Positions 1,941 through 14,052 of a stretch of 38,529 nucleotides of DNA are shown piece by piece. Position numbers and translations under genes: made by a program. Below the pieces are notes generated by a model. The model worked only from the letters and a program-made list of their open reading frames with translations, did not search any database and was not told the origin of the DNA. Source of the DNA: a virus. Its lineage: Duplodnaviria; Heunggongvirae; Uroviricota; Caudoviricetes. The stretch lies in IMG/VR virus record IMGVR_UViG_2563366802_000008. One strand, given 5' to 3'. Position 1 is the first letter of the stretch. Every line of letters begins with the position of its first letter.

Positions 1941-1984
1941 AAAAACTATCTCACGTTGGCGGTGCATTACACCGCCAGGCTGGA

Positions 1985-2818
1985 TTATTCTTCTGGATTA
2001 TCGATTACACTGTATTCCCCGGCTATAACCGATATGTCGTCTGGATTAATTGTTTCCACCTCTTTTCCATCCATCGATACTGCACGCTGGATTTCAATAG
2101 ATACCGGCAGATACTTGAACAGTTTTCGTATCACTGTCTTTTTGGCCATGTCTTCAAAGTGTTCATCCCAGATGGACGACGCCCCTTTTGACGCTGCGTT
2201 TTTTGCCGCCTTGCTGTGTGTGTCGCGAACTTTTTCTACTTGTTTGCGGGTCATGACTTCAAACTGCACTCCTCCGTCTTTCAGTTTTGCAACAGCATAG
2301 ACATGGGTTATAGGGGCATCTTCGTTTTCACCGGGACGATGAACCAGTTTTTCATCAAGGCCAAGTTCATAGCTGAATTCATCACATTCACGGACAACAC
2401 GAGCTGACAGACTGATGATTTGACCTGATCGACGGGCAAGGTCGATCATGCCGCGATAACCGATGATCAGCTGTACGTTCTTCTTACCGTTTTTTGCTTT
2501 TCCGTTGCCGAACGGTAGCAGATATGCATGACCGAGGGCGCTACCTGGCTCAAGTCCGAGCTGTGAACACTGTACGATGGCACCGATAAAACTCGTCGAG
2601 TCACAGTTTCTTAGTTCCGGTACTTTACGGATTTCTGTTGTAGCAATGCGGATCATGCGTTCCGCTGTCATGTGACGTGGCAGAGCTGCTGCCAGTTGCG
2701 CTTTCATTGCCGGGCTGTTAATCACGCACAGCACATCCTTATCGTTAACTGCTGCTGGTGCACGGTTTCCCTGAGTTTTTTGCAGATCGGCTTTTGCGAT
2801 AGGTGGTTGCTTAGTCAT
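1985..2818 (-). CDS. recT: Recombinase RecT (single-strand annealing protein)
   Basis: ORF 1985-2875; start at ATG 2816-2818 ([16 protein letters not shown]...) matches recalled K-12 RecT; start sits 2 nt after the recE stop. Confidence 0.9.
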
Positions 2819-5411
2819 TTGCATACTCCTTAGCCCAGCGGGGCAGTGATAACGTCTTAATAGCTGGCCATTCATCGGTATTTAGGCAGTCAGCCAGGGT
2901 CCGCAGATTGCGGTGATATTCCTGCTGGCCTGCCAGTTTTGCTTCTTCGCCCATCATGAAAATCTCAACCGGATAACGTCCGCATTCAACAGTTGTGCTG
3001 GCAACCAGAAAAACGAAAGTTGGCTGCACACCAAACTGTGCTTCATAACCGTCACTGTAGAATGCATCCTGAACGTGATAGCGGTAGTCGTAATAAGACG
3101 TTTTGAATCGTTGAATATCCGCTGTGGTTTTCACGTCCATGATCCAGTGAAATTCAGGAATAATTTTGTCCGGACGGCACCGACACAAAATTCCTGTTTC
3201 CGGATCTTCCCAGTAAATTGATGATTCAGCGTGTCCGGCGCTTTCAACAAGCCATTGCCCCAGCGGCAAAGCCATAACGCTTTGATACATGAGTTCAATT
3301 TTCCGGCCTTCTTCCGCAGTGATAACCGTTTTTCCTGTGCTTGCGCATTCCATCAGAAACGCTTTCTCTTCTTCTTTTCCGGCGTTTGTACGGCGGTTAA
3401 ATTCAGGTGCTACGATAAAGCGGTTACTAAATTCTTCCGGTTCAAGTACCCGGCAGTGGAAAGCGGTTCCTAAATCGAGCGTTTTTGTCTTTGTAGTGTC
3501 CACGGGGGCATTTTTACGCCACAAATACAGTGCCGGAGTATCAGCAATGTCATCGAGCTGAGACTTACTGACACCGGGACCCGCGTGGTAATTCTCATTC
3601 GAAATTCCGTAATAAATACCGGGCTCTATGTCTTCTACGATTACGGGATCTGCGACTTCGCCAGTTTCATCACTGCAATCGCGATGCGGATCGCTGCCAG
3701 CATTCTCATTGTGCGGATGTTCAGCGCCTTCCATTTCCTCCGGATCATTTTCCTGAACTTCAACCTGATTCTCTTCACCGAATGTTTCCTGGTATGTTGC
3801 GTCGCCCATCACCGCACCACAGTCAGGGCAGTTATCCCCGCCAGTCTGACCGCAGGCATTGCAGACTATTTCCTGTTCCTGTTGCACTACTGGCTCAGGT
3901 TGTTTCGCATCCGGGCTGATTATTTCCGTTTCTGGCTGGTTCTGGTACACAGAATCGCGAGTCTGGATCCCCTTTACCCATTTCGGATCGTTCGGGTCGC
4001 TAATTCCGTCAACAAATTCACCACGTGATGCAGCAAGCAATTTATCGGCATCGACAGGATCTTTTGATGGAATGTTTTTTCGGGCTTCATGGAGTTCTAC
4101 CCGCAGTTCCTGATATTTCGCATCAACAGAATTTACCTGTGACTGAGCATCCAGCGGCTGCGTGTCCTGATGATGTTCAGTTGCGTCCGGTTCCATTGTT
4201 TCAGCCTCTCCCTGTTCAACTGCCGTTGTTCCAGATGGTTGCGGTTTTTCTTCATCATCCTGTTTTCCTTCTTCTGTTACTCGCTGCGGCATCGGGGCAG
4301 AGGAGCGACCGCAGGCAATATCCACGATTTCCGGATCAGGGTTGGCATGATCGGTTTCAGTCAGTACTTTGTTCAGATATTCAGTGACGTGCGCGGGGAT
4401 GACCTCGATCCCAATTGGTGCTTCTTTTACGGACGCAACCACGATGGCGTGGGAATAATCCAGCCCGCCAAGCATGGTGATGAATTTGTCGCGGAAAACA
4501 GAAAAGGGCGGTTTATTTTCAGCGATAATTTCCTCAATGCGTTTAGCGTGTGCCGGATGAAGGTTATAGATGTCCAGATCCATTGAACGGGCCAGTACGC
4601 CAGTGGCTACGTCGCGCGCCAGTGACGTCAGATCGTGTACGAAACCTTCGCCGCGATCGGTGAGGTTTCCGCCGCCAGCATTAGCACCGGAAGCCGTGCG
4701 AGTGATGTGTGAAACACGATTACCCTTCATCCACTCTTTTGTCAGCAGTCCTCGATCGGTGTAGTCAGCGTTCAGGTATGCTTCGAAAAAAGCAGTTATC
4801 AGTCCCAGGTTTGAATTACCAGGATTAGGGAAAACTTTGTCAGTGTCACGAACCAGTTTGTGGAGTTCGCGAATTTCCAGCGGGTCGAGCAGGCTGGTTT
4901 TGTGGGAAACAGCCAGGGCAGTAACAGCCGGTAGTTCTTCAGCCCGAGCAATGTGTAATGCCTGGAGTCCGTCGCGTGAAACGTGCGTTACCGGTTTTTC
5001 GCTGCCGTGTTGAGCAAGCCAACGAATGGGCAGTTCCTGGCCAGAAATTGGGAGTAGCATATTCTCCTCAATCTCAGTCATGTCTTCGCCGTTGACGTTG
5101 GTATTGCCTTGATAGTGAGCGTTGTCTGGTGCTGCTCCCGGTTTTAGTTCCCATGTCATGGAGTCTTTGCTGAGTTGATAGCGTTCACTCCAGGTAAAAT
5201 CGATCTCACCTTCAGCGGGCAGGTCATTAACGACAGGAAAATTCGTGGCAACAGCTTTAAAATAGCTGCTCAGTTTTTTACCTGACTTAACGATCAGGTA
5301 GTCCAGAGTGGCACAGGTCGATTCAAAATCGTTGCTTGCCCACAGGACGACGTCAGGTTCACCGGATGATTTTTTCGCTTTCCGTAACAGGAAGAGTGGT
5401 TTTGTGCTCAT
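2811..5411 (-). CDS. recE: Exonuclease VIII RecE
   Basis: 866-aa ORF; sequence ([20 protein letters not shown]... ending ...RWAKEYAND) matches recalled full-length K-12 RecE. Confidence 0.9.
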
Positions 5412-7762: not shown

Positions 7763-8401
7763 TTAAATATCTTGTTGAATTTTAAAGCATACGCCCAATA
7801 TGCAAGATAGATCATCCAGCATAATTGAAGGGTAGCGAGGATTCGTGGGGACTAAAAGAATATCCGGCCCTTCTATCTCCAGTTTACGAATGACAGGTGT
7901 TGTGGTCCCTTTGGGTAAGGCAAGGACAATATTTCCTGGTTGTACGGTTCGATCGGGATCAACAAAAACTGTTGAACCATTTGGGATGGAAACTCCCCCA
8001 CCAGATGTTGACATACTGTCACTCTCTAGAACAACTGCAAAGGTATTGACCGGGATTTCTCCGACAAGCTGCACACAAGAGGTTATTGAGGAATTTTTCA
8101 TATAATCACTCCAGCTTGCTGCCTGCTGAAGTGATAGTAGCGGAACCGTTTTTATCGGCGGTAAAGATAGATCAAGCGAATCACCTGTATTTAACTCTCC
8201 TCCATTAAGAAGCCAATTTTCGTTTACTTTCAATATTTTTGCCAGTGAACTTATGTAACGCGAGGACGGCGCTCCTCCACCGTTCATCCATTGACTTACG
8301 GAGCCTTTTGATGCGCCAGTGCCATTGACAAGGTCTTTGCCTTTCAGGTTTAGCGCATGCATACGTTGGGTTATGCGTTCAGATATAGTTTGCTTGCTCA
8401 T
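7763..8401 (-). CDS. CI-like prophage repressor (N-terminal HTH, C-terminal LexA/S24-type peptidase domain)
   Basis: 212-aa ORF; N-terminal HTH-like segment (ERITQRMHALNLKGKDLVNGTGASKGSVSQWMNG); C-terminal region resembles the S24 autocleavage fold; divergent from the cro-like gene. Confidence 0.75.
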   Translation of the reverse strand: MSKQTISERITQRMHALNLKGKDLVNGTGASKGSVSQWMNGGGAPSSRYISSLAKILKVNENWLLNGGELNTGDSLDLSLPPIKTVPLLSLQQAASWSDYMKNSSITSCVQLVGEIPVNTFAVVLESDSMSTSGGGVSIPNGSTVFVDPDRTVQPGNIVLALPKGTTTPVIRKLEIEGPDILLVPTNPRYPSIMLDDLSCILGVCFKIQQDI

Positions 8402-8492
8402 GTTTTGATTTTAAAACACAGATGGTTTTGTTTCTTGACTTTCTTTGGTTTTGATTATTAAACTTTTGACGTTCAGTTTTATGGAGCGACTC
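8402..8492. promoter_or_regulatory. Divergent immunity-region promoter/operator interval (PRM/PR-like)
   Basis: 91-bp AT-rich gap between divergent repressor and cro-like genes, with repeated TTTTGATT/GTTTTGATTATT motifs and a TTGACT hexamer; assigned by position only. Confidence 0.35.
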
Positions 8493-8723
8493 ATGAAAAA
8501 ATCAGAAGTATTAGGCTATTTTGGCGGAGTTGTTAAAACAGCCGCAGCTCTAGGAACGTCAAAAACCACAGTCAGCATGTGGGGGGAAGAGGTTCCGTGG
8601 AAATGGGCGTTGCTAATTCAGGCAGTCACTGCCGGGGCGCTCAAATATGAGTTACACATACCGACGGTTGTCATTCCCGGTTCTGATCATAATCCGCCTT
8701 CTAACCAAGGGGGGGATTCATGA
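8493..8723 (+). CDS. Cro-like DNA-binding protein
   Basis: ORF 8445-8723; start chosen at ATG 8493 (MKKSEVLGYFGGVVKTAAALGTSKTTVSMW...) preceded by GGAG; HTH-like; stop overlaps the next start (ATGA). Confidence 0.6.
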   Translation: MKKSEVLGYFGGVVKTAAALGTSKTTVSMWGEEVPWKWALLIQAVTAGALKYELHIPTVVIPGSDHNPPSNQGGDS

Positions 8724-9145
8724 AAATCAAGCATGAACACATCCGCATGGCGATGAATGCCTGGGCGCATCCGGACGGCGAAAAAGTACCGGCTGCGAAA
8801 ATTACCAAAGCGTATTTCGAGCTGGGAATGACGTTCCCGGAACTGTATGACGACAGCCATCCGGAAGCCCTGGCTCGCAATACCCAGAAAATTTTCCGCT
8901 GGATAGAGAAAGACACCCCTGATGCAGTTGAAAAAATTCAGGCGTTGTTACCAGCGATCGAAAAGGCAATGCCACCTTTGCTGGTGGCCAGAATGCGCAG
9001 CCACAGTTCAGCTTATTTTCGGGAGCTGGTGGAGACGCGGGAGCGACTGGTGAGAGACGCTGATGATTTTGTCGCAGTGGCAATCGCCGGTTTCAATCAG
9101 ATGAACCGTGGTGGCCCGGCAGGAAATGCTGTGGCAGTACATTGA
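8720..9145 (+). CDS. ydaT: YdaT-like protein (Rac toxin/CII-position protein)
   Basis: 141-aa ORF beginning MKIKHEHI and ending ...VH, as recalled for K-12 YdaT; translationally coupled to the cro-like gene. Confidence 0.7.
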   Translation: MKIKHEHIRMAMNAWAHPDGEKVPAAKITKAYFELGMTFPELYDDSHPEALARNTQKIFRWIEKDTPDAVEKIQALLPAIEKAMPPLLVARMRSHSSAYFRELVETRERLVRDADDFVAVAIAGFNQMNRGGPAGNAVAVH

Positions 9146-9216
9146 CTGACAATAGCCATATCGAATCGCTTCCGGCAACTCGTGAGTAAAAAGATTCGGT
9201 ATCAGAAGAGGTGAGT

Positions 9217-10287
9217 ATGGCTAACGCCTGGCTCAGATTATGGCATGACATGCCAAATGACCCTAAGTGGCGAACAATTGCCAGGGTGTCAGGGCAGCCA
9301 ATTGCAACAGTGATGGCAGTGTATATCCACCTCCTGGTGAGCGCGTCACGAAATGTCACGCGAGGTCACATTGATGTCACGACAGAAGATTTGGCAAGTG
9401 CGCTCGACGTGACAGAAGAGGTAATTGATTCAATTTTGCAGACGATGCAGGGGCGGGTACTTGATGGTGATTTAATCACTGGATGGGAAAAACGCCAGGT
9501 GCTTAAAGAGGACAACGGCAATATTTCGCAAACCGCAAAATCTCCTGCAGAGCGCAAGAGGGCGCAGCGAGAGAGGGAAAGAAAGCGGGAACAAAATGGC
9601 GATTGTCACGGCGCGTCACGAAATGTCACGCACATGTCACGACGAGTCACGACAGATAAAGATACAGATAAAGATACAGATCAAGAAGATCAAAACACTA
9701 TGGTCCATGGCGTAAAAAACGCCACGAACCAGGCAGGGGATGTTCAGACCGTCAATCTTGGTCAGCCAGCAGGCACGACACCGGAAGCCGATTCAGCGTA
9801 TGCGCTGAAAGCCGATTCGGGCGCTGTGCAGCAGGTGATGACCGCAAGGCCGGAGCAATCACACCAACTGCAGCAGCCTGAAGCCGATTCCGCCATTCAG
9901 CGGGAAGCCGATCGGGTAGTCCCGGAAAACACCGGGCAGTCTGTGGGACGAGTGGATTATCCGGATGTGTTCGAACAGGTCTGGCGGGAGTACCCGTTGC
10001 GTGCCGGGGCAAACCCGAAGAAATCCGCTTTCAGTGCCTGGAAGGCCAGATTACGCGAGGGGGTGCCACCAGAGGCCATGCTGGATGGCGTGAGGCGTTA
10101 CGCAAGATACTTGGCGGCTACCGGGAAAACGGGAACGGAATTTGTTCAGCGAGCGACGACGTTTTTTGGACCGGACCGGAATTTTGAGAACTCCTGGTTG
10201 CTCCCGGTAAGCGGCACGAACAACCAGCGTTGTGTGAATCATATTTCTGAACCGGATAACGAAATTCCGCCGGGCTTCAGGGGGTAA
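9217..10287 (+). CDS. ydaU: YdaU-like replication initiation protein (lambda O-analogous position)
   Basis: ORF 9211-10287; ATG 9217 preceded by AAGAGGTGA; N-terminus MANAWLRLWHDMPNDPKWRTIA typical of the YdaU family; contains internal iteron-like repeats. Confidence 0.7.
   Translation: MANAWLRLWHDMPNDPKWRTIARVSGQPIATVMAVYIHLLVSASRNVTRGHIDVTTEDLASALDVTEEVIDSILQTMQGRVLDGDLITGWEKRQVLKEDNGNISQTAKSPAERKRAQRERERKREQNGDCHGASRNVTHMSRRVTTDKDTDKDTDQEDQNTMVHGVKNATNQAGDVQTVNLGQPAGTTPEADSAYALKADSGAVQQVMTARPEQSHQLQQPEADSAIQREADRVVPENTGQSVGRVDYPDVFEQVWREYPLRAGANPKKSAFSAWKARLREGVPPEAMLDGVRRYARYLAATGKTGTEFVQRATTFFGPDRNFENSWLLPVSGTNNQRCVNHISEPDNEIPPGFRG
9341..9678. repeat. Iteron-like GTCACG arrays plus tandem GATAAAGATACA repeat inside the replication gene (candidate origin)
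   Basis: GTCACG/GTCACA at 9345, 9355, 9365, 9376 and at 9605, 9615, 9625, 9636, 9646 (10-11 bp spacing); exact 20-mer GCGCGTCACGAAATGTCACG at 9341-9360 and 9611-9630; GATAAAGATACA x2 at 9655-9678. Confidence 0.55.
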
Positions 10288-10327
10288 GTGTTAATTTCTG
10301 GTCATGAGGTAATTTTCAGGAGGGCTT

Positions 10328-10750
10328 GTGGCAAAAGTTTTTACACAAGAAGAGCGGGAAAAAATTAAAGGACAGGTTCTTGAACTCGTACGCCAGAGTG
10401 GGCGCGAGACGTTACGACAACTGGAAGCTAAAACTGGGGCAACAAGATATCTGATGAGCGTTCTGGCCAGAGAGCTGGTTGCCAGTGGCGATGTATACAA
10501 TTCTGGCTACGGGTTATTCCCGTCTGAACAGGCTCGTAAAGACTGGCAAAATGCCCGCAAAAAATTATCGAGGGCAAAGCTGAAGAAACCGGTTGTGGTT
10601 GATCCGGACCTTATCTGGTCGTTACCTGACGGAGAAATACGTCGCTACGACAGTCGCCTAAACATAATCTGTCGCGAGTGCCGGAAGAGCGAAGTTATGC
10701 AGCGCATATTGTCGTTTTATCAGGGGGATGTTCGGTATTTATTGAAGTGA
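10328..10750 (+). CDS. Hypothetical protein (140 aa), GTG start
   Basis: ORF with GTG start 10328 preceded by AGGAGGG; no family recognised. Confidence 0.45.
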   Translation: MAKVFTQEEREKIKGQVLELVRQSGRETLRQLEAKTGATRYLMSVLARELVASGDVYNSGYGLFPSEQARKDWQNARKKLSRAKLKKPVVVDPDLIWSLPDGEIRRYDSRLNIICRECRKSEVMQRILSFYQGDVRYLLK

Positions 10751-10978: not shown

Positions 10979-11425
10979 TCATTTGTAAAAATCAAAAAAT
11001 TCTTGGCAGTAGATACCAGATAACGCCAAATATACCAGGACGGCAACGTCTGGTTTTGGTCCTCTTTTTATCTCATCCAAATCTTTGTTTGTGCAGGAAC
11101 GCATGGTGTCCCTGATATTCGTATCGTTAGTTAACGATTCGCTGACCGCCAGCACTACTGCTCTCTCAGTATGACTGAGAGCATTACTGGCTGAAATAAT
11201 TCGCCCATAGAGTGCGGGATGTGGGGTATTATTACTTTCCGCTATCGCTTGCTGAACACGTTCCTCCTCTACTGGCATAAGGCGACTGATGAGATCGCTG
11301 AGCAAATCTTGCTTTGACTTATGATCGTACATTACCGTTGCCTTACTGACGCCAGCCTCTTTTGCAACGTCATCGATTGAAAGTCCAACTGCACCTTCCC
11401 GAAGAACAACCCTTTCGCGTTTCAT
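10979..11425 (-). CDS. TetR-family transcriptional regulator (short, about 148 aa)
   Basis: ORF 10979-11512; start taken at the internal Met (MKRERVVLREGAV...); N-terminal TetR-type HTH LSIDDVAKEAGVSKATVMYDHKSKQDLL; divergent from the downstream cassette. Confidence 0.65.
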   Translation of the reverse strand: MKRERVVLREGAVGLSIDDVAKEAGVSKATVMYDHKSKQDLLSDLISRLMPVEEERVQQAIAESNNTPHPALYGRIISASNALSHTERAVVLAVSESLTNDTNIRDTMRSCTNKDLDEIKRGPKPDVAVLVYLALSGIYCQEFFDFYK

Positions 11426-11585
11426 CGTTTCACCGGGTGAGGTCGTGCCAGCGCCGTCGCATCCAACATCATGCGGGCAGCAGCAGATCCCATGGATGCG
11501 AATAAAAACCATTATAACCTATTGATTATTATTTTTAAATTTTAATCCAGTGCTAGATTTCTGCTTATCCCTAGGAACTAAATCA

Positions 11586-11606
11586 TGGAGGTCGAGATTG
11601 CCTCCA
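11586..11606. promoter_or_regulatory. Inverted repeat TGGAGG-N9-CCTCCA between the TetR gene and the deaminase gene (candidate operator)
   Basis: Perfect 6-bp arms at 11586-11591 and 11601-11606 in the divergent intergenic region. Confidence 0.3.
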
Positions 11607-11726
11607 GATCCTTTTGAGTAAGTGTGCATTTTGTACATGAGGGTTTAGTCAACAAGGTCTTTATTTTGGATTAATCCTATGGTAAAAAAGAGAAAATTAA
11701 GAGTTTGGATATATAAGGTAATTAAA

Positions 11727-14052
<2,326 letters not shown>

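Follow-up and report, generated by a model that had tools for sequence, protein, structure and literature searches.

Origins of replication that lie inside the gene of their own initiator are already known from phages. This arrangement is textbook knowledge for lambda and known for SPP1 and from replisome-organizer genes of Firmicutes phages, and it was proposed for P22 and phage L. In lambda gene O, four annotated 18-bp iterons are followed by a 38-nt tract with a GC content of 0.24, in which 76% of the coding-strand bases are purines. The Shiga toxin (Stx) phages 933W and P27 possess 6-iteron origins of the ori-lambda kind (PMC3349717; PMC7466680). In Salmonella phages, the proposed origins are four repeats of ~20 bp in P22 gene 18 and six imprecise 11-bp direct repeats (TGTCCAACGGA) in phage L gene 18 (PMC8022706). 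The G38P initiator of SPP1 has a DnaD-like N-terminal DNA-binding domain and its sites within its own gene, at oriL (PMC5737612, PMC6316719). The Rac prophage of Escherichia coli K-12 carries an active origin, oriJ (PMC3945230; Potrykus et al. 2000 as cited in PMC11014345). Here, a related arrangement is presented from a 38,529-nt stretch of viral DNA (IMG/VR record IMGVR_UViG_2563366802_000008, hereafter the window), which represents a lambdoid prophage from the Rac neighbourhood of E. coli. Its replication initiator gene (9217-10287, + strand, 356 amino acids) contains two arrays of a short repeat followed by an AT-rich tract. On comparative grounds, the segment 9345-9700 probably forms the vegetative, ori-lambda-like replication origin of this Rac-site prophage inside the gene of its own initiator, with a probability of about 0.75.

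The repeat unit of both arrays is GTCACG. Array 1 (9345-9381, + strand) is composed of four phased units in the order GTCACG, GTCACG, GTCACA, GTCACG and encodes residues 43-55 (ASRNVTRGHIDVT). Its exact copies start at 9345, 9355 and 9376 and the variant at 9365, giving a spacing of 10, 10 and 11 bp. Array 2 (9605-9651, + strand), the candidate core initiator-binding array, lies within linker-coding DNA and contains five exact units starting at 9605, 9615, 9625, 9636 and 9646 with a spacing of 10, 10, 11 and 10 bp. A single inverted GTCACG unit (9408-9413, - strand) was found 32 bp past the last unit of array 1, and most loci of the GTCAC class defined below have one at the matching gene position (nt ~193). 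The 20-mer GCGCGTCACGAAATGTCACG, representing two units plus flank, is present at 9341-9360 and again 270 bp downstream at 9611-9630, both on the + strand. It occurs exactly twice in the window and never in 100 shuffles. In the whole window, GTCACG has 19 matches on both strands, of which 10 fall within 307 bp. As this total alone is only mildly above that of shuffles (19 vs mean 12.4), the signal resides in the clustering and phasing of the units. With a period of 10-11 bp, the hexamer is read in each of the three frames (GTC ACG as VT, G TCA CG as SR and GT CAC G as xHx), indicating that (T)GTCACG is repeated as DNA and not as peptide. Tandem Repeats Finder detected ACAGATAAAGAT in 2.9 copies with 95% matches at 9652-9686, encoding DKDTDKDTDQ. 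The first-pass annotation of this DNA had described four plus five GTCACG copies, a 20-mer common to both arrays about 270 bp apart and a 12-bp tandem repeat after them, all within a replication-initiator coding sequence. This description was accurate except for the four copies, which are three exact ones plus the GTCACA variant, and it left the inverted unit unmentioned.

The AT-rich tract (9652-9700), purine-rich on the + strand, includes the 12-bp tandem repeat and is proposed as the DNA-unwinding and helicase-loading region. The GC minimum of the gene (0.30) is situated at 9660-9699, with an AT skew of +0.57 and a strongly A-rich coding strand. In a near-identical copy of the locus (L006), the 36 nt after array 2 have a purine fraction of 0.75. 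Directly 3' of the tract, an imperfect inverted repeat with 13-nt arms and a 5-nt loop (9701-9731) was observed, which scored as terminator-like on the minus strand and is partly conserved in a relative from E. coli O157 (L003, described below). It may belong to the origin or act as an antisense terminator. Apart from this hairpin, a promoter and terminator scan of the gene gave nothing above chance. DnaA boxes (TTWTNCACA, at most 1 mismatch) showed no enrichment, neither in the window as a whole nor around the arrays (88 found vs 88.3 expected). A run of C about 10-20 nt past the AT tract (for example GATCCCCCC or ATACCCCCCT), encoding PP(L), was also noticed in relatives L010, L012, L015, L018 and L019 and in K-12 ydaU (L005).

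The resemblance to ori-lambda is close in position and composition. In both cases the origin or candidate origin occupies the linker-coding segment of the initiator gene, and the repeats are followed on the 3' side by an AT-rich, purine-rich tract of ~40 bp. Both are transcribed from the early right operon (PMC3349717; PMC7466680). The lambda O iterons span nt 349-434 of 900, while array 2 of the window gene spans nt 389-435 of 1071. Judged by sequence, array 2 together with the AT tract is the positional and compositional counterpart of ori-lambda. The two systems differ in the units, which in lambda are 18 bp long with an internal dyad and spaced ~20-24 bp, and in the window are direct repeats at 10-11 bp with an asymmetric core of 6-7 bp. 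They also differ in the initiator, as the window protein is not a relative of lambda O in Pfam, and in gene order, as lambda P adjoins O while no loader gene is next to the initiator in the window.

To understand how far this organization extends, relatives were collected by an N-domain search and an alignment-seeded scan of one genome per species. It yielded 64 loci from gamma-, beta- and alpha-proteobacteria and Acidobacteria, 59 of them with a full-length gene. In 51 of the 59, gene nt 100-530 are strongly enriched in one of three cores, and on this basis the classes GTCAC(G) (24 loci), (C)GAACG(C) (21 loci) and GTAAC(G) (6 loci) were distinguished. A strict test for two phased arrays was passed by 41/59 loci, with array 1 at nt ~129-160 and array 2 at nt ~355-430. 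Successive cores are separated by 10 bp in 172 of 249 intervals and by 11 bp in 38 of them. Both arrays within a locus always carry the identical core class. When the class changes, the loop peptide encoded by array 1 becomes wholly different (ASRNVTRGHxxVT vs ASNATERGRTQ), and the same loop tripeptides recur in the linker. Array 2 of the relatives, with 3-5 units, is always situated immediately 5' of the AT tract, including in loci with 55-69% GC. In 49 relatives, the 48 nt past array 2 have a mean GC of 0.34 vs 0.56 for the gene and a purine content of 0.74 vs 0.57. The peptide encoded by the tract has a net charge anywhere between -5 and +4, and four loci retain the GATAA motif in a different reading frame. 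Conservation of the repeats in homologous replication genes had been named in the first-pass annotation as a point on which its reading could fall; the arrays and the tract are kept in dozens of distant relatives. A control in which the two-array test was run on all other 5-mers was not clean, as 5-mers overlapping the iterons also pass, and it was not relied on. A scan of viral contigs gave only copies that match the query at 100% identity over 168 residues, which are uninformative on variation.

The family is large, with 2252 representatives at 50% identity (E<=1e-3), and its members extend to phages of Aeromonas, Pseudomonas, Ralstonia and cyanobacteria. Of 5426 complete E. coli genomes, 1646 contain at least 80% of the 1.3-kb query around the gene. 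In the relatives, the gene 3' of the initiator is lambda-P-like or encodes a DnaB-type helicase, a DnaC/IstB-type ATPase or a DUF6475 protein, and such varied helicase- and loader-type neighbours are expected of a classical replication module. Some metagenomic short proteins (P0042, P0060, P0061, P0073, P0097, P0098 and P0105) have the N-domain (56-72% identity) fused to an HNH endonuclease (PF01844, PF14279), which replaces the replication C-domain. Many database entries for the initiator gene are partial proteins from short contigs. They suggest that assemblies often break inside the gene, plausibly because parts of it recur in several prophages of one genome (at up to 6 places).

Codon usage showed that the DNA itself is under constraint. 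In the 24 GTCAC-class genes (locus GC 34-69%), the 8 conserved-residue codons which have their third base in an array-1 core reach a modal-codon fraction of 0.97, compared with 0.53 for the 52 other conserved-residue codons of the N-domain (Mann-Whitney p=6e-6), a contrast somewhat inflated by the choice of loci, which were picked partly for the presence of the core. The near-fixed codons in the array-1 cores are TCA, GTC, ACG, GGT and CAC. Among the 27 closest loci by protein similarity, 24 are of the GTCAC class. A similar bias was observed in the tract of the 29 loci with at least 55% GC. Aspartic acid is encoded there by GAT and GAC in a ratio of 77:4 compared with 222:336 elsewhere, and lysine by AAA and AAG in a ratio of 55:23 compared with 138:264 elsewhere, while ACA accounts for 34/53 threonine codons in the tract and 49/416 elsewhere. 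The reading of the unit in three frames, the fixed synonymous sites and a codon choice running against genomic GC together indicate that the constraint acts on DNA and not on the peptide.

The initiator is predicted to consist of an N-terminal DnaD-like winged helix, a disordered linker and a C-terminal domain. It matches phrog_3729 ('replication initiation protein') over its full length (E=2.9e-257, residues 1-356 on profile positions 1-356), and the C-terminal domain is of the 'DnaD-like helicase loader / primosomal' phrog type. Close copies are labelled 'phage replisome organizer' by the Prokaryotic Genome Annotation Pipeline (PGAP), and some phage records name the gene 'protein O', by position only. 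The N-domain is predicted to fold as a winged helix, with the N-terminal domain (NTD) of DnaD as the nearest structure. Residues 129-162 have a predicted local distance difference test score (pLDDT) below 50 in the structure model, consistent with a disordered interdomain linker. According to the same model, array 1 would code for the end of helix 3 and the loop preceding the helix-turn-helix (residues 43-55), and array 2 with the tandem repeat for the disordered linker. In Pfam searches, no lambda-O-type family or Rep-family match was found for the protein and no family match for its C-domain. A search for homologues of the C-domain returned mostly partial E. coli proteins.

The first-pass annotation had called the gene YdaU-like, which is wrong as a statement of homology. 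The gene occupies the ydaU position of a Rac-like prophage and has a different N-domain. PF07120 (DUF1376) gave no match to the window protein even at E<=10, compared with 2.7e-26 for K-12 YdaU in the same run. In BLASTP against K-12 YdaU, only the last 19 residues are significant (13/19 identical, E=8e-6), and a second stretch in the low-complexity linker has E=0.006. With the PF07120 match absent and the BLASTP similarity limited to the C-terminal tail, a YdaU/DUF1376 homologue was ruled out. Both E. coli DnaT and K-12 YdaU share this 25-residue tail (...VNHISEPDNEIPPGFRG, encoded at 10210-10284, + strand). Against the final 25 residues of DnaT, 15/25 positions are identical (60%, BLASTP E=6e-8), while the remainder of these proteins does not align, and positions 156-179 of the DnaT model NF002770 match it. 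The tail is a candidate short motif for contacting host replication proteins. Recruitment of the host helicase through it is put forward as a hypothesis.

Among the close relatives, the N-domain, the arrays and the tract move together. The loci of E. coli strain 755 (L002) and E. albertii (L007) have an N-domain 87% identical to that of the window, six units in array 1 (+21 bp, seven codons) and five in array 2. In both, the tract GATAAAGATACAGATAAAGAA is followed by a switch to a DnaT-type C-domain (PF17948), and the next gene is lambda-P-like. In O157:H7 E32511 (L003), the C-terminal half coincides with that of the window from 9692 onwards, and the N-domain is without detectable similarity. 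The initiator gene of this locus (1981-3072) possesses a different unit, AAGGGGCTT, at gene nt 187 and 198 in one array and 443, 454 and 465 in the other, with a spacing of 11 bp and the arrays 256 bp apart. All five exact AAGGGGCTT 7-mers of the 5.6-kb locus lie inside the gene, followed by a purine-rich tract of GAACAGGA type, and a DnaC-like ATPase gene is present 3' of the initiator. The two-array layout may be general among lambdoid initiators which are not of the lambda-O type. Since the C-domain is exchanged right after the tract in L002 and L003, N-domain, arrays and AT tract are regarded as one mobile module. In a further relative (L004) the tandem repeat is 18 bp longer. The variation in repeat copy number which the first-pass annotation had proposed to look for is therefore present, as six units of array 1 in two relatives and 18 additional bp of the tandem repeat in a third.

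The same annotation had suggested a comparison with ydaU of K-12 Rac, and the outcome was mixed. The window gene and K-12 ydaU (L005 4120-4977) have the GATAAAGATACAGATAAAGAT tract of 21 nt in common, while GTCACG units are absent from ydaU, where TGTTCAA repeats, both direct and inverted, were found instead at gene nt 149, 234, 393, 426 and 438. These repeats together with the GATAAAGATACAGATAAAGAT tract are the likely candidate, at sequence level, for the genetically known oriJ. The two prophages also resemble each other in the Rac-type position of the gene after YdaS/Cro-like and YdaT/cII-like genes and in the ...IPPGFRG tail. They differ in that YdaU is a DUF1376 protein, that the TGTTCAA-type repeats are irregularly spaced and that the DnaC-like ydaV adjoins ydaU.

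A functional context is provided by phage Tritos, which carries the same gene with 98.5% nucleotide identity over 1.3 kb and a 100% identical N-domain. It is the only annotated replication gene of Tritos, and a DUF977 gene lies directly 3' of it, as in the window. Tritos is plaque-forming and was propagated on MG1655 (PMC9928086), hence the replication module should be a working one. A helicase-loader gene was found beside the initiator neither in the window prophage nor in Tritos. In the window, the gene after the initiator (10328-10750) is DUF977/Ren-like, and the segment 10288-10750 is without a helicase-loader or helicase gene. The linker position, the conservation at DNA level and the presence of this initiator gene in plaque-forming phages give good support, by comparison, to the lambda-like reading of the first-pass annotation, in which the origin sits in the initiator gene.

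On this reading, the DnaD-like winged-helix N-domain would bind the (T)GTCACG units, which would lie on one face of the helix because they are direct repeats 10-11 bp apart. By analogy with the four iterons and 38-bp tract of ori-lambda, the five units of array 2 would nucleate an O-some-like complex leading to the opening of the AT tract. Array 1, with its four units plus an inverted one 230-270 bp upstream, may be a second binding array for the same initiator, either strengthening the origin complex or giving an initiator-dependent control; this step is less certain. The C-domain and the DnaT-like tail would then bring in the helicase-loading machinery of the host.

Several observations weigh against the origin assignment. 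Binding of the initiator to the units and firing of the origin are predictions. The strict two-array test was failed by 18/59 relatives, and the matches of the protein to the replisome-organizer models fall below threshold (PF09681, Phage_rep_org_N, 12.8 bits vs a cut-off of 23.3, E=0.12, covering model positions 1-118 of 121; TIGR01714, 15.4 vs a cut-off of 49.8, covering 1-119 of 119). Lambda O has no counterpart of array 1, as its iteron core is absent from the upstream part of the gene, and the role of array 1 is for this reason assigned by inference. The inflation of the codon contrast mentioned above belongs here too. Outside the array-1 loop, the N-domain barely separates the iteron classes, with identities of 0.63-0.71 within and 0.61-0.67 between them. 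Residue 31 is the only class-specific one in the masked N-domain. As the loop-masked domain hardly differs between classes, the link expected between specificity and recognition helix is not visible. Likewise, the idea that iteron class follows the N-domain phylogeny was dropped as covariation evidence, because the association is weak (nearest neighbour of the same class in 42/59 loci). A fixed helical phase between the arrays, or a rigid loop, was also not supported. The distance between them changes in 9-bp (three-codon) steps (249, 258, 267-270 bp), and hence by whole codons and not by turns of the helix. The poor separation of the classes could be explained if array 1 had a double role, being at once an origin binding array and the coding sequence of an iteron-specificity loop (residues 43-55), so that reader and site change together. 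This would account for the loop change from SRNVTRGH to SNATERGR when the core changes from GTCACG to CGAACGC, and for the small difference between classes in the rest of the winged helix, including the presumed recognition helix. Such a role of array 1 is quite improbable.

Two arrays of one unit, only one of them next to an AT tract, would also be expected of regulatory DNA sites with unwinding elsewhere, at which the bound initiator or another phage protein would block pR transcription (autoregulation) or pair the arrays or two genomes and so restrict initiation, in the manner of F incC and P1 incA. In the plasmids F (incB/incC) and P1 (oriR/incA), two direct-repeat arrays accompany the initiator gene, and one of them adjoins the AT-rich opening region while the other does not. 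The arrays flank rep there, the units are ~19-22 bp long, the initiators are of Rep_3 type and control by handcuffing has been demonstrated. The window resembles these plasmids in having two arrays of one direct repeat tied to an initiator gene, and differs in that the arrays are inside the gene and the protein has no Rep-family Pfam match; handcuffing is only a conjecture for it. That lambda manages with a single array and that the distance between the arrays is not helically phased fit a regulatory function as well. Against this, array 2 always abuts the AT-rich, purine-rich tract, a signature of an unwinding element which would be superfluous for a roadblock. In addition, the position matches that of ori-lambda, and no other repeat-plus-AT region was seen within the replication module. 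A purely regulatory function is hence unlikely, while a regulatory role of array 1 could well coexist with an origin formed by array 2 and the tract.

The repeats could also be by-products of coding or replication slippage without any function as DNA, reflecting a mixed-charge spacer of DKDTDKD type and the conserved peptide ASRNVTRGH. Array 2 and the tandem repeat do code for a disordered linker, in which slippage is tolerated and copy number varies. The ASRNVTRGH peptide is conserved among relatives. The acidic linker of DnaT binds PriB (PMC13377028), from which a charged linker could matter as protein. This explanation is in conflict with the period of the repeats, which is not a multiple of 3 and leads to three reading frames, and with the near-fixed synonymous positions of the core next to free neighbours. 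It also disagrees with the codon choice of the tract against genomic GC, the change of tract peptide charge from -5 to +4, the survival of the GATAA motif through a change of frame, and the joint switch of core class in both arrays, along with which the loop peptide goes from SRNVTRGH to SNATERGR. It is largely refuted by frames and codon usage and is very improbable. The tract of GATAAAGATACAGAT type might instead serve mainly as a recombination joint for swapping N-terminal origin-binding and C-terminal helicase-recruiting modules. The similarity to L002 and L003 breaks exactly at the tract, and its 21 nt are also present in K-12 ydaU, whose N-domain is of another family. Yet the tract is kept, with variations, from Enterobacteriaceae to sphingomonads and Acidobacteria, for which exchange with E. 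coli phages is implausible, and it is always directly 3' of array 2. An unwinding element common to many origins would double as a joint, and the roles are not mutually exclusive. A joint as the main function of the tract is considered unlikely, and an initiator-dependent origin continues to be the preferred explanation for the locus.

Other described phage origins resemble the locus in part. Phage L comes near in unit length and direct-repeat geometry. The core differs from those of P22 and L, no second array was reported there, and the N-domain showed no similarity to P22 or L proteins at E<=1e-5 in the phage collection. With SPP1, the window protein shares coverage of Phage_rep_org_N and TIGR01714 over their whole length (below threshold) and a predicted structure nearest to the DnaD NTD. 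It differs from SPP1 in that the sequence similarity is marginal, the hosts of the family are Proteobacteria and the C-domains are DnaT-like or of other types, and in SPP1 the second origin oriR is distant and is not a second array 270 bp away. In the open full-text literature, no account of GTCACG-type or two-array phage origins was found, subscription journals being outside this coverage, and papers on the replication regions of Stx phages (Eru types) made no mention of iterons or of the window module. Origins within initiator genes are not new in themselves. What may be undescribed is the layout of two arrays, one of them overprinted on the coding sequence of a predicted winged helix, the persistence of this layout with three related cores throughout a very large family, and the near-universal purine tract of GATAAA type.

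In most temperate phages, the origin is unmapped. The layout offers a rule for annotating origins in prophages of Proteobacteria, namely a 6-7-bp core repeated in two phased arrays, which lie at fixed gene positions and are followed by a purine-rich AT tract. The core sequence would predict classes of replication specificity (incompatibility). The locus would also be a natural case of overlapping code, in which an array of sites dictates the loop sequence of the protein that presumably binds it, and where the cost and tolerance of overprinting could be tested. Furthermore, the replication module of this Rac-site prophage differs from that of K-12 Rac, and the lack of a loader gene together with the DnaT-like tail suggests a route of host helicase recruitment.

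The prophage around the initiator gene has recE, racC, kilR and sieB upstream. After sieB, genes for an S24-peptidase repressor, a P22-Cro-like protein and a YdaT/cII-like protein follow. The 1.3 kb at 9100-10400 are 100% identical to E. coli strain 3359 (L001). Comparison of the immunity region (window 7763-8723 vs L001 4664-5637) showed that the repressor of strain 3359 is annotated as a short LexA-family fragment and its cro as frameshifted, while the corresponding open reading frames of the window are intact (212 and 92 amino acids). In view of this difference, the window probably derives from another strain whose immunity region is more intact. A cargo cluster at 10979-14052 separates the replication module from the late genes. 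It begins with a divergent TetR-like gene on the minus strand (10979-11512). On the + strand, it is followed by genes for an adenosine-deaminase-like amidohydrolase (11679-12707), which matches the deaminase part of CARF_ADA in PADLOC (E=7e-36), a non-canonical purine nucleoside triphosphate (NTP) pyrophosphatase (12704-13258) and a SIR2 protein (13258-14052), which matches the SIR2 part of ThsA (E=9e-32). This gene content makes the cluster a candidate anti-phage defence operon.

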